From assembly GCA_018221105.1 (NCBI GenBank), contig JAAOYA010000010.1:145678-209677 (forward strand): 64,000 nt of DNA. Reading direction: 5' to 3'. The translations under genes were made by a program, and so were the position numbers. The stretch is from Candidatus Woesearchaeota archaeon (GTDB taxonomy: Archaea; Nanobdellota; Nanobdellia; Woesearchaeales; JAAOYA01). Position 1 is the first letter of the stretch. Each line of letters begins with the position of its first letter. A model generated the notes under the pieces. The model made no database searches. It was not told the DNA's origin and was given only the letters and a program-made list of their open reading frames with translations. This document shows positions 1,102-64,000 of the stretch, one piece after another.

Positions 1102-1743
1102 ATGTTCCTTGGTCATTATGCAGTAGGATTTCTTTTAAAGCGCAAATTCCAAGAAGTCCCTCTTTGGCTTTTGTTGGTGTTTTCGCAGTTGATTGACATT
1201 ATTTGGCCTGTGTTGGTCATGTTTGGTGTTGAGAAGGTCGCTTATAATGCTGCTGCTAATCCTTTCTTGCGCGTTGAGTACACATTCTACCCGATATCGC
1301 ATAGTTTGATAATGACTTTGCTCTACGCAGTACTAGTCTTTTTCTTGTTTCACAAGCTCAAGAACAAGACCTGGGCTTTGGCTTTAAGCATTGCTGTAGC
1401 TTCACACTGGTTTTTGGATTTGATTACGCACGTTCCTGACCTTCCGATTCTTTTAACGTCAAAGGTTGGGCTGGGGCTCTGGCAGTACCCTAAGGGTTGG
1501 TTTCGCACTGAAGTGATTTTTTTTGGTATTGCAACGTATTTCGTGCTGGATAGTAATAAAGATAAAAGTTTTAGGATTTGGATGTTTAGCGGCTACATTT
1601 TAATGATAATGCTCTTCTTGTTTATGTTTTTCGCGCCAGCAATAACACCAACAAACCTACAATTAGGATTAACAACACTACTAGTCATGGCTATCCTGCC
1701 TACTTTTGCATATTTTGCAGAAAAAAAAGGAAGAAAAAAATAA
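1102..1743 (+). CDS. membrane-bound metal-dependent hydrolase, YdjM/DUF457-like
   Basis: Multi-TM protein with His/Asp-containing segments (HYAVGFLL, SHSLIMTLL, ASHWFLDLITHVPDLP) reminiscent of the DUF457 family. Confidence 0.4.
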   Translation: MFLGHYAVGFLLKRKFQEVPLWLLLVFSQLIDIIWPVLVMFGVEKVAYNAAANPFLRVEYTFYPISHSLIMTLLYAVLVFFLFHKLKNKTWALALSIAVASHWFLDLITHVPDLPILLTSKVGLGLWQYPKGWFRTEVIFFGIATYFVLDSNKDKSFRIWMFSGYILMIMLFLFMFFAPAITPTNLQLGLTTLLVMAILPTFAYFAEKKGRKK

Positions 1744-1746
1744 TTT

Positions 1747-1923
1747 TTATTTTTTGTTCCACATTGCTAGTAGTTCTTGCTTGTGCGTTACTGCAAGAAT
1801 GACTGCTCCTACTCCTACTGCTATTAGGATGTCTGCTGCCCATTGTCCGTTTAGTAGTCCAAAGCCAACGCCTACTAGTAGGCTTCCGACTAGTGGTAGA
1901 AAACAAATGTTTTGTTTTGCCAT
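1747..1923 (-). CDS. small hydrophobic protein (58 aa)
   Basis: Manual translation MAKQNICFLPLVGSLLVGVGFGLLNGQWAADILIAVGVGAVILAVTHKQELLAMWNKK. Local GC-richer stretch consistent with Gly/Ala/Val-rich TM coding. Below the 60-aa track cutoff. Confidence 0.3.
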   Translation of the reverse strand: MAKQNICFLPLVGSLLVGVGFGLLNGQWAADILIAVGVGAVILAVTHKQELLAMWNKK

Positions 1924-1997
1924 TTTTTCACCCCCATTATTTTTTCTTTGATATCCATTTTTGCTTTTTTCTTTTACTATTATTTAATTGTTTTCAT

Positions 1998-2723
1998 CTA
2001 ATGTAAATCAGAGTCTTCTGTTTCAATATTGACTTTTCCGCTTGCTGCTTGTGCTTCTGTAAAACTATCATAGTAGCATCCAACACTAACCCATCGTTGT
2101 TCATCATGAATGCTCTCATCATTCATGAATGTTTCGTAGTCGCTGACGATTTTTTGTATTTTTTGTAGCTCGACGTCTTTAACACTTTCATCTAATAAAG
2201 CGTAAGGACAAACCGATAGTATGTCCTCTGCTAGTGCACTACTTTTAAATATCATCAAGCCCCACTTTCCAAAACCCTCATCAGGAGCAGTAAGAGGTGA
2301 GACTTCTCCTATCACATCACCAACAACCACAGTGTCACCTTTGGAGACTTGTGGGTTTAGTACGTGTTCGTAATTAATAGTCCAAGAACCATGATTGATC
2401 AATACCGAGTAATCGTCAGAGTAAAGTTTTGGAACACTCTCTACAACACCATTACTAACTGCGTAAACTTTTGAGCCAACAGGCAAGTAAAACTCTGGGT
2501 GTGGACTAATACCTCCTACCTCATAAGAATCTCCGTATTCGTGAAATATTTTGTCTGTCCAGTGAAAATCGTGCATTACAACGTCATCAACATTTATGCC
2601 TATAGAATATATTGTTGGAGGAGTTTGTAGTTCTTCTTCAAAAGTATCTTCTAGCATTACTGGCTCTTTTGCACAACCAACTAGTAGAACTATTAAAAAA
2701 ACTAATAAGTACCTCTTTTGCAT
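1998..2723 (-). CDS. lipoprotein with degenerate LytM/peptidase-M23-like beta-barrel domain
   Basis: Signal peptide plus lipobox (LLVGC). Segment VGSKVYAVSNGVVESV...SVLINHGSWTINYEHVLNPQVSKGDTVVVGDVIGEVSP fits the M23 fold pattern, but the terminal HxH catalytic motif is not seen. Confidence 0.4.
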   Translation of the reverse strand: MQKRYLLVFLIVLLVGCAKEPVMLEDTFEEELQTPPTIYSIGINVDDVVMHDFHWTDKIFHEYGDSYEVGGISPHPEFYLPVGSKVYAVSNGVVESVPKLYSDDYSVLINHGSWTINYEHVLNPQVSKGDTVVVGDVIGEVSPLTAPDEGFGKWGLMIFKSSALAEDILSVCPYALLDESVKDVELQKIQKIVSDYETFMNDESIHDEQRWVSVGCYYDSFTEAQAASGKVNIETEDSDLH

Positions 2724-2741
2724 TTTATTATTTGCAAAGTT

Positions 2742-3023
2742 TTACACTGTCATTTCGAATTTAGTGATGTTTTGCGTTAAAGGCTTGAACGGGAACGGTC
2801 TTTGATTGCTAACAAATGTTGCGTAGCGCAAAAAGATGTACATTTGCGTGTTCCAAATCTCGCAAAAATCAGCTATTGACTGGTTTCTTTTAGCAACTAC
2901 TAATGCTATGAAAAAGTTTGTTATTGCAAGTAGGTGTATTAGCATTTTCCAAACTCCTAAAATTATTCCTGAAACAATCAATACTGGTATTCTCATTAAT
3001 GCTTCTTTACGATCGGTTTTCAA
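2742..3023 (-). CDS. small membrane protein
   Basis: 93-aa ORF with two hydrophobic helices; no recognisable family. Confidence 0.25.
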   Translation of the reverse strand: MKTDRKEALMRIPVLIVSGIILGVWKMLIHLLAITNFFIALVVAKRNQSIADFCEIWNTQMYIFLRYATFVSNQRPFPFKPLTQNITKFEMTV

Positions 3024-3264
3024 AAATTATCACCTCAATATCAATTTTTGATATTCGAGTATTTAAAGTTTGCCAATAAATTTTTATAATAGTCTACTGA
3101 TTAAAGTATTATGAATCCAAAAGATGTTAATGTTAGAGATTTTAATCCTGTTTATCGTACTCTTGAAAGATTAGAAGAACAAAAAAGACAGCGTAATTTA
3201 GAGCGTTCTGCGAGCCTTCCAAACTTGCGAGATTTTAGTCTTGCTTACAGAATTTTAGAAAAAG

Positions 3265-3672
3265 ATGAAAAATAAAATTTTTATAACAACTGTTTTGTTG
3301 TTGATTGTTTTAGTGTTTACTGCTTGTGCTAACACTACTGTTGTCAATGACAGGCCTACTGTTTGCACGATGGATTATACTCCTGTTTGCGCTAAAGTTG
3401 ATGTTCAATGCATTAAAGCACCTTGTCCTCCAATAAGTCAAACTTTTTCAAATAAGTGCGAGGCAGAGGCTGCTGGCGGTTTTGATATTACAGATGGCGA
3501 GTGCCAGTTTGAGTGTGACGCACAAAATCCTTGCAAGAATGAAGGTTTTGATTGTTACAAGTTTGAAGACGTGAGCACTCCTTTTTGTTATAATGATGAC
3601 CCATGCGAGCGTTGCGAATCAGGACAATGCCTAATACTAGAGTCTTATCCAATGCAGGTGCGTTGTGAATAG
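3265..3672 (+). CDS. secreted cysteine-rich lipoprotein with Kazal-like inhibitor motif
   Basis: Signal peptide/lipobox (VFTAC). CTMDYTPVCA...QTFSNKCEAEAAG matches the Kazal Y-x-PVC...TY/F-S-N-x-C-x-A core. A second Cys-rich half follows (14 Cys total). Confidence 0.45.
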   Translation: MKNKIFITTVLLLIVLVFTACANTTVVNDRPTVCTMDYTPVCAKVDVQCIKAPCPPISQTFSNKCEAEAAGGFDITDGECQFECDAQNPCKNEGFDCYKFEDVSTPFCYNDDPCERCESGQCLILESYPMQVRCE

Positions 3673-3704
3673 TTTTTTAAAGTCTTTTAATAATAATTGT
3701 TTTT

Positions 3705-6029
3705 ATGAGTGAGCTTTACACTTTGCGTCCGCAAAAAGGGGTTTTTGTCAATTATCGTTTTGTCAAAAGTCCTTTGACTTGGATATTCTTTATAATCTTA
3801 CTTTCAGGATTGTTTAATTTTGTTTTTTTAATTGCAGGGATATTGTTGTTAGCGTTTAATTATTATCGTTTTAGGGTGCAGTACAAGAAAACAAAATATG
3901 TTTTCTTGGCAGATAAACTAATACAACAGACTGGTGGATTGTTTCATGATAAAGAAACTGAACTGTTAATCACCAATATAACGCACGTCTCGAAAGTGCT
4001 GCCTTTTATTGAAAACAAACTCTTTGACACTGGCCACGTGTTCATTCAAGCTGCTGGCAGTAGTAAAGCAGAAGTTGTACTAAAAAGCATTGCTAACACT
4101 AAAAAATTTTATGATTACGTTTTTAATTTAATGCAGCATAATGGTTTCAAACTAAAAAAACAAGAGCAAGTACAAGTTGAAAGCCCAGCGTTTAGTGGAG
4201 TGCTTTTTGAAACACTAACACACTTTTTTGCTAAAATTTTTATTGTTTTGTTTGTCTTGATACAAATTATTGGTGAATCATTCGATCTTTTGATGGATGT
4301 TATTCGCTCGCCAACATTGCTTGCGGGTTTTGGCTTGTTAGCAGCTTTTGTATTGTTTGTTATAGTTGTTCACAGTATTTTCAAGTTTTTGGACCTTATC
4401 AATCGACGCTACACTGTTTTTGATGATACTATAGAATACAAAGAAGGTTTTCTCACAAAACACTATTCTTTTATGCCAACAGAAAACTTAGCTGACGCTG
4501 AAGTAAAACAAACAATAGTTGATAAAATCTTTAGTTTATACGACGTCAAAATTAGTGTTCAAGGAGCAGGTCAAGAGATATTATTTAAAAATATGAAAAA
4601 TGGCAAGTTGCTTGAAGAAAACCTTGACAAATTGATTCAAGGAGCTCAAAAAATAACTAAGAGCGCGAAAACTGTTGCAAAACAAGAGGTTCCAACAACA
4701 AAACTTGAAAAGAACACTGAGTTCACAGCGACTTATAAAATGAGCTTTTTTAGGGCTTTGATCCAGACACTTATTATCATACCATTTTTTCCAATATGGA
4801 TTTTTGTTGCATTAATTGTCGGCATTACTGCTGCTGTAACAACTTATAATGTTAAAGCTTCTAGTGTTGAACAACGCTACGATTTTATCACAAAAAAAGT
4901 TTTAGAGTTCAGTGTTGATAAAGTTACGGCAATCAATATTAGCGAGAATTTTATTGACAAGTGGTTCAATACCATAACTATTAATTTTTCTTCTATTGGC
5001 TCGCACGAAAAAATCAGTTTTAAACACTTAAAAAAAACTGATGACTTACAAAATAATATTTTATCAAAGTTTGGACTGGTAGAACAAACTAAAACTCATA
5101 GCATTTTTTCAACTTATCGAATAAGAGATTTTATAGCTGCAAACAGTGTCTTCCTATTCTTTTACGCTTTAGTTTTTGCTCCATTAATGCTATTTTTTAC
5201 TGTTTTTGTTAGCAGTCAATCAACAGAAGGCACCATTATTTTAACAGGAATACTAGCGGGAATAGTGCTCTTGCCAACAATTTTTATTCTTACTAGCATG
5301 CTTTATGGTTTATTCGTGTACAAGTTTTCACGCTTGGACTTTTACAAGGACCATTTTTATTTTCAAAAAGGATTCTTTTTTCGCAATTATTACCATGTAC
5401 TGTACGATAATGTTAAAGGTATAAAAACTACCAAATACCCATTGTCTAGCTCTGGTAGTATTCTATTCAACGTTGCTGGTGAAACAATGGCACAAGCCAA
5501 TAATCAAAAAGGTCAACAAATGCTAATGTCAAACCAGTTTAAAATGCGCTATGTAAGCAATATAAAATTAAAAGATGAATTGTTAGAGTTCATATTCTAC
5601 AACAAGCCAACAGTAGAACAATTAGAACAGTTTATGAAACAAGATTCTTTTGAACATGAGACAGTGCTAAGTGTAAAACCACGATTAGCAAACACTATAG
5701 TACCATTAATCATTATTAGCATTATCATTCCACCTTTGCTGTTCTTGTTGCCAATCATTTTATTGTTTGTAATTCTCACGTTGAAAATGACAACTTACGA
5801 ACTACAAAATCATAGATTGTTAAAACGTTCAGGAATATTGTACAAGAAGCAGCAATCTATAATTTTTTACAAAATAGACCACATTAACAAAAAACAAGGT
5901 TTTTTGAACAAAGTGTTTTCTAACGGTTCTGTTATTGTTAACACTACCGGAACTAGTCGTGCTGAAATGATTGTAAAAAACATTAAAGAATTTCCTGAAT
6001 TTTATCAAAAACTAAAAGAGAATTACTAA
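3705..6029 (+). CDS. membrane protein with four YdbT-like bacterial PH (bPH_2) repeats
   Basis: Four repeats of [TM hairpin]-[~100 aa soluble module], each beginning Y-x-(L/V/F)...; pattern typical of membrane-flanked bPH_2 domain proteins (YdbS/YdbT). Confidence 0.45.
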   Translation: MSELYTLRPQKGVFVNYRFVKSPLTWIFFIILLSGLFNFVFLIAGILLLAFNYYRFRVQYKKTKYVFLADKLIQQTGGLFHDKETELLITNITHVSKVLPFIENKLFDTGHVFIQAAGSSKAEVVLKSIANTKKFYDYVFNLMQHNGFKLKKQEQVQVESPAFSGVLFETLTHFFAKIFIVLFVLIQIIGESFDLLMDVIRSPTLLAGFGLLAAFVLFVIVVHSIFKFLDLINRRYTVFDDTIEYKEGFLTKHYSFMPTENLADAEVKQTIVDKIFSLYDVKISVQGAGQEILFKNMKNGKLLEENLDKLIQGAQKITKSAKTVAKQEVPTTKLEKNTEFTATYKMSFFRALIQTLIIIPFFPIWIFVALIVGITAAVTTYNVKASSVEQRYDFITKKVLEFSVDKVTAINISENFIDKWFNTITINFSSIGSHEKISFKHLKKTDDLQNNILSKFGLVEQTKTHSIFSTYRIRDFIAANSVFLFFYALVFAPLMLFFTVFVSSQSTEGTIILTGILAGIVLLPTIFILTSMLYGLFVYKFSRLDFYKDHFYFQKGFFFRNYYHVLYDNVKGIKTTKYPLSSSGSILFNVAGETMAQANNQKGQQMLMSNQFKMRYVSNIKLKDELLEFIFYNKPTVEQLEQFMKQDSFEHETVLSVKPRLANTIVPLIIISIIIPPLLFLLPIILLFVILTLKMTTYELQNHRLLKRSGILYKKQQSIIFYKIDHINKKQGFLNKVFSNGSVIVNTTGTSRAEMIVKNIKEFPEFYQKLKENY

Positions 6030-30965: not shown

Positions 30966-30985
30966 AAACAGAAATTTCTGGTATT

Positions 30986-31258
30986 GGCGAGCTAGGCCGG
31001 GTTACTAGCCCTTAACCTTTACCGCAAACGGGCTTTACGGCGGGGCTTAAAGCGCAAGGCGGCTTTAGTGAACATTGTTGGTCCTATCAGTTGCTGTCGA
31101 CGTCTCGTCCTTTAGGGTTTGCCTTTGTGGAAAACTGGTCAGACCCTGACGGGAGCAGCCATAACCTTTTAGGTAGGTGTCTAGAGGGTAGCGGGATTGA
31201 GGCGCTGGCAGGATTAAACCAACAGTGCCATTTTAGTCCACTTGTTGCCCGCTCGCCA
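30986..31258 (+). ncRNA. ffs: signal recognition particle RNA (7S RNA)
   Basis: GC-rich island in AT-rich DNA. 5' GGCGAGCUAGGCCGGG pairs with 3' CCCGCUCGCC. Helix-8-like GGUCAGACCCUGACGGGAGCAGCCA (cf. conserved GGAAGCAGCCA). ORF 31091..31273 inside it is spurious. Confidence 0.7.
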
Positions 31259-38136: not shown

Positions 38137-38210
38137 GGGCGGTCGCCGGGAATTGAACCCGAAACTGGAGATCCACAGTCTCCTATGATAACCATTTCAC
38201 TACGACCGCC
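38137..38210 (-). tRNA. tRNA-His (anticodon GTG) with genomically encoded G-1
   Basis: Cloverleaf G(-1)-GCGGUCG-UA-GUGA..UCAU-A-GGAGA-CUGUGGA-UCUCC-AGUU-UCGGG-UUCAAUU-CCCGG-CGACCGC-C73. The extra 5' G pairs with C73. Confidence 0.8.
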
Positions 38211-41862: not shown

Positions 41863-41880
41863 TTTTTGTGTTTGTAGTGT

Positions 41881-42200
41881 ACAGGGGTTATAAGCCGCCT
41901 TTTGTCAAACCCGAAAACAAAACTTTTTTCCTGTTTTGTTCGATGGTTTGCGCTGGTATTTGACTTAGCGTCTAATGACTTGCACCGGTCGAGGTACGCA
42001 CTCGTTTCATCCTTTCCTTCTGAAGCGTCAAAGGGTTAACTGACACCAGTCACCTGGTGCTTCGCGCTTATCATTCTCATATCAGAGGTGGTTTCGTTGC
42101 TGCGTGGTTTTCCCAGGATTTCTCCTGCTGCCATAAAGCAGTGACCTTTTTTGGTGGGCGGACTTTCCTCAGTACATTGTACCGTTAACCAGCCACCCCC
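41881..42200 (-). ncRNA. rnpB: RNase P RNA
   Basis: GC-rich island. Minus-strand sequence contains GAGGAAAGUCCGCCC (CR-I, P4 5' strand) and ACAAAAGGCGGCUUAUAAC (CR-V, P4 3' strand). Confidence 0.7.
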
Positions 42201-42224
42201 ACTACTATAACAAGGATTCTTAGA

Positions 42225-48294: not shown

Positions 48295-49887
48295 TTATAA
48301 GTTTTTCCGTCCTAAAAAGTAGAACACATTAAAAAGCATTAAGCCAGTGAGCACAATGTACGCTAATTGTTTTTTTAGTTTTACTTGTTTTGACTCGTAA
48401 ATTATACTATTGCGTGAAACAATAACTGGCAATTTATCACTTGCAATGCTAATTATTGGTTGCGCAACACCTACACTTTCAAAACTTGCGCTTTGAGCGC
48501 TAGCCTCTTGTACTCCTGACTGTACTGTTAAAGGATTTTGTAAACTGACAGTTTTGGTTAGTTCGTAAGGTGTTTTCAAATCATCTTTTCGTATTACAAC
48601 TTTTAGTTTGTAATCGCCACTTTCGCCTTCAAGCACAATGTTTTCTAGTGTTATTTGCGCGTCTGTACTAGCTTGTAAAGTAATAGTTTTAGTGTTTGCG
48701 TCGCGCTCGCCACTATAACTTTTTGGTCCTCGGTAAATGTAGCTGTAAACACTAAATGAGTGTTTTTCGTCATCATTGTTTTCAATTAATAATTTAGTTT
48801 TTGCTGTTGTTCCAATAAGTATTATTGGTTCGTAATCAATGATTTCATAATTGATTGTTTTGCTAGTGGAAGTTTTTGTTTTGTACTTTGTTATTTCATC
48901 ACAGTTTTTTGTGCTTGTTCCACTAAGATGTATTTTTTTTGTTATGACATTATCCAAGCCTTCAATTAGTAAGTCATAATCTTTATTTTTTAGTCTGCCA
49001 TTACAATTTGGTTTTAATTGTACTGGCGTATTAACTATTGCTTCTGAAAACTTTGAATTGATGTAGAATTTGCTAGTGGTTGCCGCGTTAGGTATTCTAA
49101 TATAAACTACTGTTTTGCCAGAGTCTCCCCTGAAAGCTCTTGTTTTGACGTGCACTATATCTCCAAAAGTTGCCTCTGTTGGATAATCTAGTAGTTCTAC
49201 TTCTGAATTGTAGCGCTCTACTCCTTTTTTCACTACTAATTTTTCATCGTAAATGTTTTCATTGGTGTTATTGCACTTAGCGTGCAATTTAGCGCATAGT
49301 ATGAATGCTTTGTCAGTCTCTGAAAATTTTGGAGTGTAACTTTTCTGATTGTCGTTTGACGTGTTATACTTTTTTTTGAGGATGTTTTTAAAAACGTCTT
49401 CAATCCAATATTCAATCTCATAATCAAAAGTTTCATCCAATTCAAAAGAATATTTTATTGATTCATTATTTTCATATAATTTTTTTGTAGATGTTAACTC
49501 TAGTGATACATTGCAAGGTATTGTGTTAGTGTCAATAACATTAATGGTTTTGCAAATAATTTGTTCACTATTATTTATTTGACCGCACAAAACAAACTCT
49601 CCAACTTCACCAATTACTAACGTGCCAGTGTTTGCGTACTTATAACTTTTCACGTCAACTGTGAAAAAATCACTAAAAACTAACGTGTTATTTTTTGATA
49701 AGTTATAATTTACAGTCACACTTACATAATCTCCTCCACTGCTATAAGTTGTGTTCTTGATTTTAAAAAGTCGAGTGTACTCTGAATCCATAAAAACAAC
49801 ATCATCAACATATGTTTCGATAGTCATTTGTGCATTGACAACTGGCAAGAGCAATAATAACAATAAAATAATTTTTGTCTTTAACAT
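48295..49887 (-). CDS. cell-surface glycoprotein (signal peptide, C-terminal TM anchor)
   Basis: N-terminal signal, many N-x-S/T sequons, C-terminal hydrophobic anchor LAYIVLTGLMLFNVFYFLGRKNL. Confidence 0.55.
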   Translation of the reverse strand: MLKTKIILLLLLLLPVVNAQMTIETYVDDVVFMDSEYTRLFKIKNTTYSSGGDYVSVTVNYNLSKNNTLVFSDFFTVDVKSYKYANTGTLVIGEVGEFVLCGQINNSEQIICKTINVIDTNTIPCNVSLELTSTKKLYENNESIKYSFELDETFDYEIEYWIEDVFKNILKKKYNTSNDNQKSYTPKFSETDKAFILCAKLHAKCNNTNENIYDEKLVVKKGVERYNSEVELLDYPTEATFGDIVHVKTRAFRGDSGKTVVYIRIPNAATTSKFYINSKFSEAIVNTPVQLKPNCNGRLKNKDYDLLIEGLDNVITKKIHLSGTSTKNCDEITKYKTKTSTSKTINYEIIDYEPIILIGTTAKTKLLIENNDDEKHSFSVYSYIYRGPKSYSGERDANTKTITLQASTDAQITLENIVLEGESGDYKLKVVIRKDDLKTPYELTKTVSLQNPLTVQSGVQEASAQSASFESVGVAQPIISIASDKLPVIVSRNSIIYESKQVKLKKQLAYIVLTGLMLFNVFYFLGRKNL

Positions 49888-58725: not shown

Positions 58726-60291
58726 TTACATTTTGTTTAACTTGTTGGTTAATTCTTCTATTTCTTTAGCTCGCTCTTGAATGCTTTTTGGTTTTTTAGG
58801 AGCGTATTTTACTATTAATAATATTATAACACCTAAAAGTCCTGAAATCATGATGATTATAACAAATAATTTTAGTATTTTTGAAAAAAGCGATTTTTCT
58901 CCTTCTTGCACATTGCTTGTTTGTTCTACTTGTGGAGCGTTTAATACTGTTATATTTTGACATTCTGTAAATGTAGCGTCTTGAAAGTATAGGTCTGCGC
59001 AAACTTCTTGTTCGTTGCCGCCAGCGTTTATGTATAAGTCTATTGTTTGACTTTGTGCTGGAACAATTTTGATTATTCTTTTTTGTTCTTTTAAGTATAA
59101 TATTATATCTTGCTTTGGTAGGTCAGCTAACATTTTAATATTAAGCCCTAGTGGCTCGCCAAAATTAATTTCGTTCTCTGATACAAAAAAATCAAATGGT
59201 TTTTCTTGTACTGTTATTGTTAGTGGAATTGAATGTTGAACATTATCGTATTCTACTGTTAAATCGTATAAGTGCACTCCAAGAATTGCTCCATTAATTA
59301 GTAGGTTTGTTTGTTTTGAAATATTAGTTTTAACTTCTATTGTGCTCTCTTGCAAGCTTATTATTTGATTGTCTATTATTGATAGGCTGATTGTCAAATC
59401 TCGATCTATTAAAAAAGTTATTGGGTGCTCGATTGTTAACCCTTCAAAGGTTGTTATTGTAATCTTTGATGGCAAAACTAGTTCTTGAGAACTTGTAGTA
59501 TTACTCGTGCCACCGCCCATGCCTCCGCCGCCTCCATCACCGCCTCCGCCGTCGCCGGTGATGCAAGTAATGCTTTCTGTTGGCTTTAATATTTGCGTTC
59601 CACAATTATTGCTGTCTGTGCAGGTTCTTGTGCCGCACGTGCTTTGTGACCATGCAGTGCAGCTCCAACTTTCAACACAATAACCTTGCAGGCTGAAGTA
59701 CTGGTCTGAAGTGTTAAAATTGTTGAAGTTAACTGTGTTGTTGACAATTTGTAGGTTGTACTCGCTTGTTCTATCTACAAAATTAATGCCGTCAAACCAG
59801 TAAAGATAATATGCTGTATGATTTTCACTGCTGTTAACTACTACGCTAACATTGATAAAAGGATTTTGGGCGTGCACTGTCATATTTTTTTCAAAATAAC
59901 TACTGGTTGTTCTAATGCTTGTTATGTTTAGTGTTGGCGAGCTTACATTAAACTTTAAGAATGAAGGTGTTTTGCCATTGTCGGCGCTCCAGCTTAAGTG
60001 CGTGCTGTTTTGCGTGACTGTTACAGGGGTATTGTTCTCAATTACTTGCCAGCTAAAACCGTTGGGCCACTTTGGCGGTTTTGGTATGCTAATGTTTACA
60101 GGGTTTTGAATGTTATACACTAATGGCAATAATATTGTAATATTTGGACCTCCTACGATTACTGGCGTTGTCTGATTTGGCATTGTTTGATTAGTCCAAG
60201 CTGGAGGTATCTGCATTCCTACATTGAACGTGTCAGCGTAGACAACAGTACACATTAATACTATGATGAAAAATAGTGTTTTAAATCTCAT
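58726..60291 (-). CDS. cell-surface glycoprotein (S-layer-like; signal peptide, Gly-rich linker, C-terminal TM)
   Basis: Signal MRFKTLFFIIVLMCTVVYA; more than 20 N-x-S/T sequons; Cys cluster CTAWSQSTCGTRTCTDSNNCG; GDGGGGDGGGGGMGGG linker; C-terminal TM plus KK tail. Confidence 0.6.
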   Translation of the reverse strand: MRFKTLFFIIVLMCTVVYADTFNVGMQIPPAWTNQTMPNQTTPVIVGGPNITILLPLVYNIQNPVNISIPKPPKWPNGFSWQVIENNTPVTVTQNSTHLSWSADNGKTPSFLKFNVSSPTLNITSIRTTSSYFEKNMTVHAQNPFINVSVVVNSSENHTAYYLYWFDGINFVDRTSEYNLQIVNNTVNFNNFNTSDQYFSLQGYCVESWSCTAWSQSTCGTRTCTDSNNCGTQILKPTESITCITGDGGGGDGGGGGMGGGTSNTTSSQELVLPSKITITTFEGLTIEHPITFLIDRDLTISLSIIDNQIISLQESTIEVKTNISKQTNLLINGAILGVHLYDLTVEYDNVQHSIPLTITVQEKPFDFFVSENEINFGEPLGLNIKMLADLPKQDIILYLKEQKRIIKIVPAQSQTIDLYINAGGNEQEVCADLYFQDATFTECQNITVLNAPQVEQTSNVQEGEKSLFSKILKLFVIIIMISGLLGVIILLIVKYAPKKPKSIQERAKEIEELTNKLNKM

Positions 60292-60860
60292 TTTTTTCGA
60301 AAAAGTTTCTTTGATATTATATTACTTCTTTTCCACAATAAAAAGATTACGAAAAATAGCACTATAGTAAATGATAAATAGTAATAATTGAGTTTTTTTG
60401 GTTTTGTTCCAACACCATTTTCATCAACTATTAGCACGTCAAAAGAGCGTGTTAATCGCATGTTCATACCAATCATTCCACCGTTGTTATCTTTGGCTTG
60501 TGGTGTTATTGAATAAATTATTTTATGGGCGTCCCCAATTTGTGCGTCTTTTGGAGCCTTGATTTTTAAGAATATTTCAGTATCAAAAGATTTTGCTGGC
60601 AGGTTGTATGTTTGGTTAGGGTTTATGATTGTTGCTATTTCACTATTAATAACCAATGTGACTGTTACTGGTTCTTCTTGCGGGTTTTGTAGTGTAAGTT
60701 TTAGAACGTGCTCTTGGCCTTGTAATAATCTTAAAGTGTTATCTTTAAGATAGTCTTGTGCTACTCCTAAAGCTTGAGTTTGTGAACTAAGAAAAATTGT
60801 TAAAAAAAGAATGAAAAAAAATTTTTTCATGATCTTTAATTGTAAGCTTCCACTAACCAT
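60288..60860 (-). CDS. small secreted/anchored surface protein
   Basis: Signal peptide (MKKFFFILFLTIFLSS), beta-rich body, C-terminal TM. Confidence 0.5.
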   Translation of the reverse strand: MVSGSLQLKIMKKFFFILFLTIFLSSQTQALGVAQDYLKDNTLRLLQGQEHVLKLTLQNPQEEPVTVTLVINSEIATIINPNQTYNLPAKSFDTEIFLKIKAPKDAQIGDAHKIIYSITPQAKDNNGGMIGMNMRLTRSFDVLIVDENGVGTKPKKLNYYYLSFTIVLFFVIFLLWKRSNIISKKLFRKK

Positions 60861-61300
60861 TGTGTGCTAGCGTTTGTGCTATAAGAACCATTACTGATAC
60901 CTGCTGGCACGTCAACCCACACGTATAGGTCTTGAGTAGTATTGCGTGATAAGTTAGCACTTGGTATTATAATGTTAGCAGTTAAAGCAATACCTTTAGC
61001 ATCATCAGTAGAGTTTATTGTGAAATTTCCAGCTCCTATTGTATCAACGCCGTTTGTTAACTCATCAGCTGTAACATTAATGGTTGCAAAGTCACCATTA
61101 CCAGTATTGTTAAGTGTTTGCGGGTCATCGGACGCGTTAACATTATTAACTCCTGCGCCAGCTGCAGTGAAACTTATACTGTTAGATGTTAGCGAGAAAG
61201 CATAAAGTGTGTTGTATGTCAAATTATTACCTTCATCTTGCGTTGCATTGCTTGAAGCGTCATCAATTGCGTAAACGTCTATAGTCCATAGTCCTGACTC
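60836..61300. repeat. direct repeat copy 1 (3' coding end of paralog A)
   Basis: ~88% nucleotide identity with 61762..62230 by eye, including the first bases after the stop codon. Confidence 0.7.
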
Positions 61301-61696
61301 ATCATAATAGTTCATGTCGATGGTGCAAGTGACTCCTCTTGTTGTTCCGCCTGTCCAAGCAGCATAATCTGAACAACTGCTGCTAAATCGTGTAACGCCG
61401 TTGAGTGTTACGTTAGCTGTTGCTAGTGTTGGATCCACAGTGCCAAAACCGTTATCGTCTGTTACATTAAATAGTATTGTAACTGCTTTTGTTGTTCCCT
61501 CATTTGGTGTGTCGCTTGCTGCGCCAACAGCTTGTATTGCTGGTGGACTGTTGCTGATTGTTAGTGTAACATTGAAGTATTGTTGTGTGTTATTATATCC
61601 TAAAACAAAGCTTGATAGTGGTGTAAGTAATAGTGTTGCAGCAAGTAAGAAAATCATTAATGTTGCAATAGTTTGTGTTTTGTCTTGTCCACTCAT
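60836..61696 (-). CDS. secreted Thr/Asn-rich surface protein, paralog A
   Basis: N-terminal hydrophobic leader, many N-x-S/T sequons. C-terminal ~150 aa ~85% identical to the next gene (ends ...STNASTQWLVEAYN). Confidence 0.6.
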   Translation of the reverse strand: MSGQDKTQTIATLMIFLLAATLLLTPLSSFVLGYNNTQQYFNVTLTISNSPPAIQAVGAASDTPNEGTTKAVTILFNVTDDNGFGTVDPTLATANVTLNGVTRFSSSCSDYAAWTGGTTRGVTCTIDMNYYDESGLWTIDVYAIDDASSNATQDEGNNLTYNTLYAFSLTSNSISFTAAGAGVNNVNASDDPQTLNNTGNGDFATINVTADELTNGVDTIGAGNFTINSTDDAKGIALTANIIIPSANLSRNTTQDLYVWVDVPAGISNGSYSTNASTQWLVEAYN

Positions 61697-61761
61697 TTTA
61701 CATATTAATTATATTAATATACCTTTTACGCTACTGGTATTTAAATGTTTTGTTTTTTTAA

Positions 61762-62230
61762 TTAGTTATAAGCTTCCACTAGCCATTGTGTGCTAGCGTT
61801 TGTGCTGTAAGAACCATTACTGATACCTAATGGTATGTCTAACCAAACGTAGAAGTCTTGAGTGCTATTGCGTGTTAAGTTAGCGCTTGGTATTATAATG
61901 TTAGCAGTCAAAGCAATACCTTTAGCATCATCAGTAGCGTTTATTGTAAAGTTTCCAGCCCCTATAGTATCAACGCCGTTTGTTAACTCGTAAGCTGTAA
62001 CATTAATAGTTGCAAAGTTACCGTTGCCAGTGTTATTAATTATTTGTGGGTCATCAGACGCGTTAAGATTGGTAGCTCCTACAGTGGCCGCTGCAAAACT
62101 AATATTGTTTTGTACAAGGCTAAAAGCGTATAAAATATTGTATGTGAAACTTGTCGTATCATTATAATCTGATAGTCCTGCGTCATCACTAGCAGTTACA
62201 TTAATTGTCCAAGCGCCTGGCAAATCATAA
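61762..62230. repeat. direct repeat copy 2 (3' coding end of paralog B)
   Basis: See copy 1. Confidence 0.7.
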
Positions 62231-64000
62231 TAATACATTGCAACACTACAATTGTACCGTGTGGCTGTTGCACTGATTGTGTTATTGTCACAAATTCCAC
62301 TTCTTAAAACGCCATTCTTTGAAAACTCTGCTATAGCACTACTATGATTGAAATTGCTTTCTGTGTCTGTTACGTTAAAGTCAAAGTTCACATTCGTTAT
62401 CGAAGCATCTGTAGGATTCTGACTTGCTATTGGTTGAACCTCAGTAATACTTGGAGCAGTATTTGAAACAATAAGTATTGTTATGTTAGTGCTGTTGCCC
62501 CAACTACTATAATTATAACTATCATAAACTCTTATTGCACAACTCCACTCATCATCAACACTAGTATTGCCGCTGCCAAGAGTAGCATTAAACAATGTAC
62601 CGTTAGCATAACTGTTATTATAGTCTAATGTAAAATTCAATGTAGCATTTTTATACCATCTAACAGTCACGTTCAAAACATGACTATTATTATCGGTCAA
62701 TGTACTAACACAATTGAGGTCTTGGTTTGTTGCATTGCCACCATCCGAGCTATTGATTGTTGGCAAAGGAGTGTTAGGTATTGTATTGGGAACTGTGAAT
62801 GGGCTGTTTGTAGCATTTGGTTGCCCCACTCCATTAGCGTGGTTGATATCGCAGGTGTACGCTACCCAACTATTTTGTCCTCCCATAGTAAGATTTGCTG
62901 TTACAGTACAGGTTGCTGGCTGTCCTGAAGTTGTTTGCGATGAAGTACACCAATTACCATTACTGCAAACACCTGTTGGTGGAGGACCTTTATCACAACT
63001 AATAGTTGAGCCTCCTTTACAGATTATCATGGCGTAATCATAACCCCTAGTAGCACTTGTTGCTGTCCCGTTAAACGTGATGTTACTTCCTACTATCACA
63101 GGATCAGGTGTGTCAGTGACGTCAAAGTCAAACTCCGCAGGGTCAGCGGGTCCGTCATGGACGTAATCATAAGTTATGCTACTATTTACAGATTTTAAGT
63201 CAAAGACTGATTGGTAACCTGAGTGGTTCATATCAATAAAGTACGCGCCGTCATCACCAATACTTACTTCCCCTACTAAGGTATCTGTGTTTTCTTCGTA
63301 GACTTCGATTGTTGCTCCACTACTATTTATTACATAAACGTCAATATAGTTTTCATTTGTCAAATTCTTTTCAAAGTAGGCTCTTACGTAATCACCAGCA
63401 GGTATTGTATAGTATACACTGTCAATTTCTTTCACTTCATCATAAATGTTTGTTATAAGGCTTCTTGCACTATCTAAGTGTTCAGCATCAGTGATATTAA
63501 TCTCTACATAATATGTTTGATTTGACAAGTGCGGCACAATCCATTCAATTCTATCAATTAGTTTGTTATTGTTTGTATCAATATATGTCGCATCGTTTAC
63601 TAATTGTTTTGTGTTATTAACAAGCCAGTAAAGTTTTGCAGCTCCTTTGCGAGTTTCACGAATTGTAGTGTACACTTGTATGTTTTCATAGTGTACATCA
63701 GAGCTTATTGTTATTCGTTTTTTGTGATTGCTGATTTTTTCTTCTTTTTTGGTTGGCGCTTCTGTATAATATTCTATTTCTATTTGTTTTGTTTGCTCTC
63801 TAATTGTTGTTTGTCTTGCTTTAGTTTTTACTTTTGAGTTTTCAATTTTTTGTTTTTTGTTTGCCACTATATTATAGGCTGTTATGTTAGTGGCTTTTTT
63901 CGGAATATCCACAGTAATATCATCTACTGTGTTATCATACTCTAATGTTCTAGTCCATTTTACTGGCTTATTGATTTCAACTTTTTCTTGGATTGTTTTG
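61762..64000 (-). CDS. large secreted Thr/Asn-rich surface protein, paralog B (5' end beyond window)
   Basis: The frame stays open upstream of the listed GTG at 63912 to the window edge. Same C-terminal domain as paralog A, with a much longer N-terminal region. Confidence 0.6.
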   Translation of the reverse strand, partial: KTIQEKVEINKPVKWTRTLEYDNTVDDITVDIPKKATNITAYNIVANKKQKIENSKVKTKARQTTIREQTKQIEIEYYTEAPTKKEEKISNHKKRITISSDVHYENIQVYTTIRETRKGAAKLYWLVNNTKQLVNDATYIDTNNNKLIDRIEWIVPHLSNQTYYVEINITDAEHLDSARSLITNIYDEVKEIDSVYYTIPAGDYVRAYFEKNLTNENYIDVYVINSSGATIEVYEENTDTLVGEVSIGDDGAYFIDMNHSGYQSVFDLKSVNSSITYDYVHDGPADPAEFDFDVTDTPDPVIVGSNITFNGTATSATRGYDYAMIICKGGSTISCDKGPPPTGVCSNGNWCTSSQTTSGQPATCTVTANLTMGGQNSWVAYTCDINHANGVGQPNATNSPFTVPNTIPNTPLPTINSSDGGNATNQDLNCVSTLTDNNSHVLNVTVRWYKNATLNFTLDYNNSYANGTLFNATLGSGNTSVDDEWSCAIRVYDSYNYSSWGNSTNITILIVSNTAPSITEVQPIASQNPTDASITNVNFDFNVTDTESNFNHSSAIAEFSKNGVLRSGICDNNTISATATRYNCSVAMYYYDLPGAWTINVTASDDAGLSDYNDTTSFTYNILYAFSLVQNNISFAAATVGATNLNASDDPQIINNTGNGNFATINVTAYELTNGVDTIGAGNFTINATDDAKGIALTANIIIPSANLTRNSTQDFYVWLDIPLGISNGSYSTNASTQWLVEAYN

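Follow-up and report, generated by a model that had tools for sequence, protein, structure and literature searches.

A tandem pair of surface-protein genes in a Woesearchaeota genome shares a C-terminal domain homogenised by recurrent gene conversion

The window analysed here is a 64,000-nucleotide stretch of a Candidatus Woesearchaeota MAG, from a tiny symbiotic member of the DPANN archaea. Its last part contains four successive minus-strand open reading frames, all of which encode secreted or membrane proteins, in agreement with the first-pass annotation of the sequence. They are p521 (58726..60291, 521 residues), p190 (60288..60860, 190 residues), p286 (60836..61696, 286 residues, GOV04_05630), and a large paralog of p286 (61762..64000), of which the window holds the C-terminal 745 of 970 residues. 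The reading frame of the large gene is still open at the window end, and its start lies beyond it. In the Logan assembly L001 of run SRR15671256, which is 100% identical over 3,394 nucleotides, the large gene (positions 1336–4248) encodes a 970-residue protein, p970, with an N-terminal hydrophobic segment. The small and large paralogs are separated by a 65-nucleotide AT-rich spacer (61697..61761, minus strand), which contains TTTAAATA 43–50 nucleotides 5' of the ATG of p286. Judged by its letters, this element may be a separate archaeal promoter for p286.

Both paralogs terminate in the same type of module, composed of two beta-sandwich domains. The small paralog p286 has a Sec-type N-terminal signal and nothing beyond this signal and the module with which the large paralog ends. 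The AF2 model of p286 has a domain junction near residues 163–166 (pLDDT 90.9), and the chain ends at the last strand, without a C-terminal anchor; the signal peptide is probably cleaved, which would leave p286 with no anchor of its own. At its N-terminus, the large paralog carries a hydrophobic segment, either an anchor or a signal, followed by a string of beta-sandwich domains, and its first ~725 residues have no counterpart in p286. The similar upstream architecture that had been ascribed to the two genes thus holds for the ~135 residues ahead of their most similar part, where amino acid identity is 38–41%, and does not extend to the rest of the large protein. The 970-residue protein has no Pfam domain, C-terminal hydrophobic segment, or cytoplasmic domain; as in the earlier reading, neither paralog has a C-terminal transmembrane segment. 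Its orthologs are 820 to 3,914 residues long (3,094 or more where truncated by the contig) and carry Peptidase_S8, DUF285, and Laminin_G_3 domains; the large paralog is plausibly a variable adhesin.

Sequons are enriched approximately 2–2.5-fold over shuffled controls in three of the four proteins: p286 has 15 (7.0 ± 2.2 in shuffles), p970 has 51 (20 ± 3.8), and p521 has 17 (7.6 ± 2.4). The other proteins of the window have 0–1.5 sequons per 100 residues. The crowding of sequons proposed for all four genes does not apply to p190, which has one. The suggestion of a pilin-like leader was not borne out: the class III (prepilin) motif [KRDE][GA][ALIFQMVED][ILMVTAS][ILMVTAS] directly before a hydrophobic stretch is present in one of 50 family members and absent from p286. 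Instead, most N-termini of the family look like Sec signals, in which a conserved context of the cleavage type places small residues at −3 and −1 just ahead of the mature domain.

The proteins p190 and p521 have no detectable homology to the module. p190 begins with a signal peptide, continues with a single ectodomain predicted to be beta-rich, and closes with a C-terminal hydrophobic segment and a short tail of basic residues. Its true start is probably at 60830, corresponding to Met11 and a 180-residue protein, as given by NCBI. p521 is composed of a signal peptide, a sequon-rich ectodomain, a Cys-rich mini-domain, a Gly/Asp linker, a second ectodomain, a hydrophobic segment, and a short cytoplasmic tail. 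The mini-domain (residues 205–243; 59563..59679, minus strand) contains six cysteines in 39 residues, and the C-terminal hydrophobic segment, which is the predicted membrane anchor, spans residues 467–498 (58798..58893, minus strand), in agreement with the features initially described for this possibly S-layer-like protein. Mini-domains of the same type also occur in unrelated secreted proteins with other domains, of which the named source is Pacearchaeota only.

The four genes belong to a conserved five-gene locus encoding a double-HTH protein, the large protein, the small protein, p190, and p521. The double-HTH protein is a 166-residue open reading frame directly upstream of the large gene, in this genome as in all other loci for which the context is available. 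p190 is conserved immediately beside the small paralog, and its stop codon overlaps the start codon of p521 (ATGA). All five families co-occur in the three arrangements for which the full context is available, two of which are co-directional and one divergent, and therefore they appear to form one functional unit. In genomes L012 and L013, no p190 or p521 genes are seen beside the pair, on contigs that are truncated at one end. One genome has a gene for a T2SSE-type ATPase at a distance of ~3 kb from the cluster.

The 3' ends of the two paralogs share a tract of 319 nucleotides that is 87.8% identical in an ungapped HSP (60836..61154 in p286 and 61762..62080 in the large paralog, both on the minus strand). 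The tract comprises the last 105 codons of the large gene together with the final base of the preceding codon and the stop codon, ends exactly at both stop codons, and spans the greater part of the module's second beta-sandwich. The identity of ~88% stated initially is correct; however, it does not extend over ~465 nucleotides, because wider alignments of the 3' ends have identities of 81.5% over 400 and 74.4% over 465 nucleotides. Neither does the similarity run past the stop codons, downstream of which just 13 of 40 bases match. The divergence of the pair is not uniform: the maximum chi-square breakpoint is at residue 181 of p286 (chi2 = 107), and nucleotide identity changes abruptly there from 51% upstream to 87.7% downstream.

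The source of the sequence is a MAG, and repeats are prone to mis-assembly; however, it is extremely improbable that the tract is a collapsed or chimeric repeat. There are 39 mismatches between the two copies over 319 positions, 23 of them at third codon positions, and the longest exact run is 28 nucleotides. Furthermore, the separate Logan assembly reproduces 3.4 kb identically, and the same arrangement is found in five other genomes.

The evolution of the module was compared among six independent Woesearchaeota and Nanoarchaeota genomes, including the one described here (W; the others are L2, L6, L7, L12, and L13). The first beta-sandwich, the N-domain (residues 45–180 of p286, 61157..61564; 62081..62475 in the large paralog; both on the minus strand), groups by type in all six genomes, so that the large proteins form one group and the small proteins another. 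Its identity within a type is 40–64% for large and 51–61% for small proteins, and 29–40% between types. Accordingly, the N-domain of the large paralog from W is 45–58% identical to those of large proteins from the other genomes and 38% identical to that of p286, which in turn is 51–61% identical to those of small proteins elsewhere. The split of the N-domains into large and small groups across the six genomes indicates that the duplication is old and that the first domain has evolved separately in the two lineages since before these genomes diverged. A recent duplication, one of the two origins considered initially, is excluded by the presence of orthologous pairs in at least these six genomes.

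By contrast, the C-domain groups by genome in five of the six genomes. Its identity within a genome is 86, 70, 71, 75, 67, and 79%, compared to 52–73% between genomes, and the partner from the same genome is the best C-domain match for five of the six large proteins. In L012, the two C-domains are not mutual best matches. Neighbour-joining bootstrap values of the within-genome C-domain pairs, computed on four of the six genomes, are 100, 94, 65, and 50. The start of the tract coincides in all six genomes and lies ~15–20 residues into the second domain of the AF2 model. Between the paralogs of W, pS is 0.32 and pN 0.07 in the C-domain, and 0.70 and 0.42 in the N-domain. The C-domain pS averages 0.75 between genomes, and therefore its synonymous sites are otherwise free to change.

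The sharp breakpoint, the low pS confined to the tract, and the conflicting trees of the module halves substantiate the gene conversion of a shared C-terminal module that was suspected from the single sequence. Recurrent gene conversion has homogenised the second domain, and only this domain, between the two paralogs of each genome. Conversion is recent in W and in two further lineages, with a within-genome C-domain pS of 0.42 in L2 and 0.56 in L13, and older elsewhere (0.70–0.86 in L6, L7, and L12). Since synonymous sites are saturated in L006 and L012, conversion in these two genomes is deduced from protein similarity only, or is absent. The C-domain is under purifying selection after conversion, and it is also more conserved than the N-domain between genomes (pN 0.23 versus 0.39), as would be expected if the C-domain were simply under much stronger selection. 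However, selection on the protein cannot reduce pS to 0.32 where the between-genome value is ~0.75, and it cannot produce C-domains that group by genome together with N-domains that group by type. An explanation without gene conversion, be it by stronger selection or by a recent partial duplication, is very improbable.

Antigenic-variation cassettes of the pilE/pilS or vlsE type contain one expressed gene and several silent partial donors for its variable region. An antigenic-variation family, as proposed initially, is not supported by the organization of the locus: there are no silent partial donor copies within the 64-kb window, the two copies present are complete open reading frames with signals, and the converted part is the conserved end and not a variable region.

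For mtrA-1 and mtrA-2 of Methanococcales and Methanomicrobiales, which are paralogs in a single archaeal operon, long-lasting gene conversion confined to one domain has been described (PMC4632066). As in the mtrA genes, old archaeal paralogs of one operon or locus have one domain that was repeatedly homogenised in each lineage, whereas the rest is architecturally different. A common complex of both paralogs is known for Mtr and is proposed here for the large and small proteins. Unlike mtrA-1 and mtrA-2, the proteins described here are secreted, glycosylated beta-sandwich surface proteins of DPANN archaea, the C-terminal domain is the one homogenised, and the age of conversion differs widely by lineage, from a pS of 0.32 to saturation. 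[quoted passage not shown] The large and small genes resemble the surveyed cases in that paralogs from one genome are closer to each other than orthologs from different genomes and in that the pattern has arisen repeatedly in separate lineages; however, only part of the gene is affected, and neither Pfam nor NCBIfam has a model for the family. The locus adds a case of domain-restricted recurrent concerted evolution.

The p286 family of ~280-residue proteins includes 2,361 cluster representatives, and sequence searches identified no Pfam, NCBIfam, or PDB relative of the family. Fold searches returned only generic Ig-like matches, including FimH, CsuA/B, and an Aaf adhesin, and therefore the predicted structures provide no clue to function. 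Among the best 150 family representatives, 23 carry a hydrophobic stretch and a run of K/R residues immediately after the module. One or two HTH repeats follow the K/R run in 22 of these 23, and they are the same repeats as those in the 166-residue open reading frame upstream of the large gene. Sigma70_r4_2 scores above the Pfam cut-off in one fused tail (27.4 versus 25.7 bits), whereas the other HTH matches are below Pfam cut-offs. Because the hydrophobic stretch of the fused relatives is only 11–16 residues long, their passage through the membrane is presumptive. Membrane-tethered transcription factors of the ToxR type combine an extracytoplasmic domain, a transmembrane segment, and an HTH in one chain. 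The extended relatives with HTH repeats resemble ToxR by sequence, with the reservations imposed by the short stretch and the low scores of most HTH matches. p286 and the large paralog were rejected as single-chain regulators of this kind, because neither carries an HTH or a transmembrane segment after the module.

The repeated copying of the end domain alone between the two genes, here and in relatives, suggests that both proteins belong to one cell-surface complex, and we infer that this assembly is encoded by the five-gene locus. The shared C-domain may be a common assembly or docking element, either by pairing of the two copies or by docking on p190 and p521, the single-pass membrane proteins encoded at the same locus; both copies would therefore have to stay matched. 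Docking would hold the small protein at the membrane together with the C-terminus of the large protein, whose variable part would face outward, presumably for contact with host cells. The membrane-proximal position of the C-domain is suggested by the 23 relatives in which a hydrophobic stretch and a K/R run directly follow the module. However, p190 and p521 are tied to the C-domain by gene neighbourhood alone, and the large protein may be held simply by its N-terminal hydrophobic segment. The reading as a whole, that is, an old tandem pair with domain-restricted conversion and one surface assembly using the C-domain for docking, is held with slightly better than even confidence.

Other readings of the locus are each less probable. 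The proteins could form a pilus- or thread-like filament in which p286 polymerises by strand exchange and the large protein joins through its C-terminal module as a tip adhesin, with the C-domains as the subunit interface. As in two-domain tip adhesins of the chaperone-usher type such as FimH, the C-terminus of an adhesive protein repeats the domain from which a separately encoded small subunit is built; the fold matches listed above, the T2SSE-type ATPase gene, and the possible promoter of the small gene agree with this arrangement. Nevertheless, a filament is unlikely. The pair differs from FimH-type adhesins in that the fold likeness is generic, the module has two complete sandwiches and not one pilin domain, the organism is an archaeon, and there are no chaperone or usher genes. 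A two-component S-layer, with the large protein as the outer lattice, p521 and p190 as membrane stalks, and the small protein as an accessory lattice subunit, is slightly more doubtful still. Ig-like folds, numerous sequons, and neighbours with C-terminal anchors are consistent with it, and candidate S-layer and anchor proteins of Nanobdella share the same general look (bioRxiv 10.1101/2023.10.27.564410). The layout of SlaA/SlaB is similar: a large, glycosylated, Ig-rich outer protein is encoded next to its membrane-anchored partner, which has a transmembrane segment at the C-terminus. However, the size of the large orthologs, together with their protease, lectin, and DUF285 domains, varies too much among close relatives for a lattice-forming protein, and the locus has five genes including one for an HTH protein. 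Kinship to SlaA/SlaB or other known S-layer proteins was not detected by sequence matches in Pfam, NCBIfam, or the PDB, and the fold matches are generic.

It is also conceivable, at rather low probability, that the module is the membrane-proximal part of a new DPANN contact-sensing device, in which giant, variable adhesins are wired to the double-HTH DNA-binding protein as the output, and which is split into separate genes here. The fused relatives, the recurrence of their HTH repeats directly ahead of the large gene wherever the context is available, and the Sigma70_r4_2 match point in this direction. By contrast, the proteins of the window have neither a transmembrane segment after the module nor an HTH, the hydrophobic stretch of the fused forms is short, most of their HTH matches are sub-threshold, and sensing by itself leaves the homogenisation of both C-domains unexplained.

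Some relatives of the large paralog resemble the SPEARE proteins of Nanohaloarchaeota, giant surface proteins with serine-protease and laminin-G-type domains, a C-proximal hydrophobic segment, and a restriction-enzyme-like cytoplasmic domain, which have not been described with a small paralog (PMC6642349). The likeness is one of domain make-up, since these relatives show Peptidase_S8 and Laminin_G_3 domains and a hydrophobic segment followed by an HTH tail. Unlike in SPEARE proteins, the cytoplasmic part of these relatives is a double HTH, and the 970-residue protein lacks the protease, C-terminal segment, and tail.

The locus defines a large unnamed protein family and a conserved five-gene neighbourhood. 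For DPANN archaea, which live attached to other cells, we know of no surface structure mediating this attachment that has been worked out so far. A domain that is kept matched by conversion in several lineages points to protein parts that must fit together, and the family, its neighbourhood, and the conversion signal yield testable predictions about a host-contact apparatus. If the module were part of a contact-sensing device, the adhesins and the HTH protein would be connected by fusion across a short membrane segment or, as here, by adjacency within an operon, and the small paralog would be a matched co-receptor of the large one. Host attachment would then be reported to the genome of the symbiont by an archaeal counterpart of membrane-tethered transcription factors, and the HTH link, if functional, would represent a new kind of archaeal surface-to-genome signalling.

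The four genes of the cluster are located on the minus strand of a 232-kb contig of a Candidatus Woesearchaeota MAG. They encode the single-pass membrane proteins p521 (window 58726–60291) and p190 (60288–60860; the NCBI start is Met11, which gives 180 residues), the 286-residue small paralog p286 (60836–61696; NCBI GOV04_05630), and a large paralog, the open reading frame of which runs from 61762 and is open at the window end. Locus L001 from a separate Logan assembly (run SRR15671256) is identical to the window over 3,394 nucleotides and completes the large gene, which encodes 970 residues with a hydrophobic segment at residues 6–35. There are 17 sequons in p521, 15 in p286, and 51 in the large protein, compared with 7.6, 7.0, and 20 in shuffled sequences; p190 has one sequon only. 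Six cysteines of p521 fall within 39 residues, and the protein also has a Gly/Asp linker and a hydrophobic segment at the C-terminus. The other proteins of the window have 0–1.5 sequons per 100 residues. The next highest density below the cluster is that of a further predicted secreted protein of 530 residues (48295–49887, minus strand), which has the signal MLKTKIILLLLLLLPVVNA and 8 sequons. Scans of all four cluster proteins against Pfam and NCBIfam gave no match at or near the cut-offs, and when p521, the family profile, and the 970-residue protein were compared with PDB sequences, the only hits were linker or low-complexity noise; none of the four has sequence relatives in these databases. 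The window also encodes archaeal RNase P RNA (41879–42205, minus strand), archaeal SRP RNA (30985–31258, plus strand), and one tRNA (38138–38209, minus strand), all above the Rfam gathering score, as well as an archaeal PCNA.

The genes of the two paralogs share a single ungapped blastn match of 319 nucleotides (60836–61154 and 61762–62080; 87.8% identity), which ends at the final base of the stop codon in both. Counted back from the stop, the identity is 81.5% over 400 nucleotides and 74.4% over 465. The first-pass annotation described a repeat of about 465 nucleotides at about 88% identity, of which the identity holds but the length does not, and its extension of the similarity past the stop was overstated, as 13 of 40 bases match downstream. 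The homology of the proteins is longer: residues 45–286 of p286 are 60% identical to the final 240 or so residues of the large protein, with about 40% identity across the first 135 residues and 86% across the last 106. A maximum chi-square scan places the shift in identity at p286 residue 181 (chi2 = 107). Collapse of the two copies during assembly was rejected on the basis of the 39 mismatches in the 319-nucleotide tract, 23 of which are at third codon positions, and of the identical L001 sequence; an assembly artefact is extremely improbable.

The structure of p286 was predicted confidently by AlphaFold2 from a 50-sequence alignment (pLDDT 90.9). The model contains an N-terminal helix followed by two beta-sandwiches at about residues 50–163 and 165–286, which form the module common to both paralogs and are here called the N-domain and the C-domain. 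According to the domain limits in the model, the homogenised tract corresponds essentially to the C-domain. A class III (prepilin) motif is present in only one of 50 family members; the N-termini are thus not of the prepilin type, and the pilin-like leader proposed previously is not supported. Immediately ahead of the mature domain, most members have small residues at positions −3 and −1, the pattern of signal peptidase I substrates, and are presumably cleaved by this enzyme. In the spacer between the paralogs (61697–61761), TTTAAATA precedes the start codon of p286 by 43–50 nucleotides, and another AT-rich box lies closer to that codon; the spacer may hold a promoter of the small gene's own. 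The scan of the window for sigma-70 promoters and terminators is not meaningful for an archaeon.

The pair of large and small proteins was found in five further independent genomes (L002/L003/L008/L010/L017, which are one organism; L006, which equals L011; L007; L012; and L013); locus searches with a narrow family alignment gave 4 and 2 loci. The large partners in other genomes have 820 to 3,914 residues and contain Peptidase_S8, DUF285, or Laminin_G_3 domains. Three contigs with a DPANN-type locus, CAYOEA010000004 (L008/L002), CAYRYB010000006 (L009), and JBHOSX010000052 (L012), were deposited as "uncultured Methanosarcinales archaeon" or "Bacteroidota bacterium". These labels probably reflect mis-binning or mislabelling, and for the Methanosarcinales label co-binning with a host is conceivable.

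The two domains of the module have different histories in the six genomes. The N-domains group by type, with identities of 40–64% between large proteins and 51–61% between small proteins, but only 29–40% between large and small ones, and type-specific indels also separate them. By contrast, grouping by type is absent from the C-domains, whose within-genome pairs are 86, 70, 71, 75, 67, and 79% identical, compared with 52–73% across all between-genome pairs. For five of the six large proteins the best C-domain match is the small protein of the same genome, which has a chance expectation of about 4e-5 with 11 possible partners each. Neighbor-joining trees of four of the genomes have conflicting N-domain and C-domain topologies, and bootstrap values of the within-genome C-domain pairs are 100, 94, 65, and 50. 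The tandem pair is therefore old, and gene conversion limited to the second domain has occurred in several lineages. The first-pass annotation was right about gene conversion; its recent duplication is rejected by the domain-wise identities and the presence of the pair in six genomes, and its antigenic variation is not supported by the two copies in the window.

Synonymous differences per site (pS) between the C-domains of one genome are 0.32 in the window genome and 0.42, 0.56, 0.70, 0.82, and 0.86 in the others, whereas C-domains of different genomes average 0.75 and N-domains range from 0.63 to 0.89. The low values indicate that homogenisation works at the DNA level, and selection without conversion is very unlikely to have produced the pattern. 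Homogenisation is recent in the window genome and two other lineages, and old or absent in the remaining ones, where only a modest excess of amino-acid similarity is left. In each of the six genomes the tract begins at the same position, which suggests that conversions extending into the functionally distinct N-domains were removed by selection. Recurrent, domain-restricted concerted evolution by gene conversion is thus very probable. Domain-restricted concerted evolution, a pattern of the same kind, is known from mtrA-1/mtrA-2 of methanogens (PMC4632066). In a survey of prokaryotes, recurrent concerted evolution was rare and affected mostly proteins of one complex (PMC6053082).

Relatives of p286 with a length of about 280 residues number 59 and come from Woesearchaeota, Nanoarchaeota, and Pacearchaeota. 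Among 1.84 billion representatives, a profile search identified 2,361 family members. The best 150 of these include 92 stand-alone small proteins, 35 long proteins (392–2,434 residues) that end in the module, and 23 in which the module is followed by an extension. The 970-residue paralog (representative P0078) was missed by a word-indexed homology search with p286 despite long exact words in common, and was picked up by the exhaustive profile search.

The paralogs belong to a conserved locus of five families, which also includes a double-HTH protein and p190-like and p521-like proteins. The order is HTH, large, small, p190, p521 in one direction in the window genome, L006/L011, and L007. In L017/L002, which are one contig, p521 and p190 are divergent from HTH, large, and small, and in L004, L005, and L014 HTH and large are divergent from small, p190, and p521. 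The p190-like and p521-like proteins encoded elsewhere (L017 8848–12193; L014 11278–13745; L004 10952–13719) have in common a domain of about 70 residues at the end of a long cytoplasmic tail. This domain has the motif F.YHV...NDF..WI and sub-threshold similarity to DUF5752; the tails of p190 and p521 in the window are short and lack it. Comparison by hhalign of the family profile with p190 and p521 detected no relationship. The Cys-rich mini-domain of p521 (residues 205–243, window 59563–59679) has the six-Cys motif C.ESW.C..WS...CG.R.C.D.N.CGT, which recurs at 49–62% identity in otherwise unrelated secreted proteins with PG_binding_1, Beta_helix/NosD, or Kre9_KNH domains; two weaker matches (38–42%) add Peptidase_C1. 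The cysteine spacing is reminiscent of thrombospondin type 1 repeats; the motif gave no match to Pfam TSP_1. In one genome a T2SSE-family ATPase gene and a 738-residue neighbour are positioned about 3 kb past the p521-like gene (L017 15359–17632), and no such genes are present near the cluster in the window. Genes for LemA, an M48 peptidase, and a rhomboid protease lie 0.6–3 kb downstream of the cluster in L004 (14343–16704) and also in L005; they are possible candidates for processing enzymes and are not kept in the other loci examined.

The HTH protein of the window genome is a 166-residue open reading frame (L001 855–1355, about 655–1,155 nucleotides past the window end on the window's minus strand), which shares 20 nucleotides with the start of the large gene and consists of a pair of HTH repeats, with matches to HTH_38 and Sigma70_r4_2 that are both under the cut-off. 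Every locus with context has a homologous frame upstream of its large gene. The same repeats occur in the extended family members from outside the window (P0065, P0099, P0120, P0141, P0148, and 18 others). In all 23 a hydrophobic stretch of 11–16 residues and a K/R run directly follow the conserved Trp of the last strand of the module, and in 22 one or two HTH repeats come after the K/R run. One tail exceeds the Pfam cut-off for Sigma70_r4_2, and the others fall short of it. The positive-inside pattern makes the stretch a putative membrane span; if it does span the membrane, the C-domain would abut the membrane, with the HTH part in the cytoplasm. The giants P0099, P0141, and P0148 have a region of about 95–195 residues before the first hydrophobic segment, which is predicted to be cytoplasmic, so that both protein ends would lie in the cell. 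The layout of the HTH-fused members, which are on short contigs with little gene context, recalls that of SPEARE proteins, known giant surface proteins of Nanohaloarchaeota (PMC6642349). An identification of P0148 with the giant protein of L014 was rejected.

Several functions of the locus were weighed. Signalling of contact via the HTH protein, a partner of the large gene in the locus whose repeats are fused to the module in the extended family members, is improbable. A fibre with the tip formed by an adhesin is still less probable, and an S-layer pair is the least likely of these. The explanation that combines gene conversion with docking is the best overall and is favoured slightly beyond even chances; its docking part, taken alone, is tentative and falls somewhat short of them. 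According to this combined explanation, the large and small proteins would act in one surface assembly, and the matched C-domain would be a common pairing or docking element that binds either its twin or p190/p521. Host contact would be the role of the large protein's variable ectodomain.
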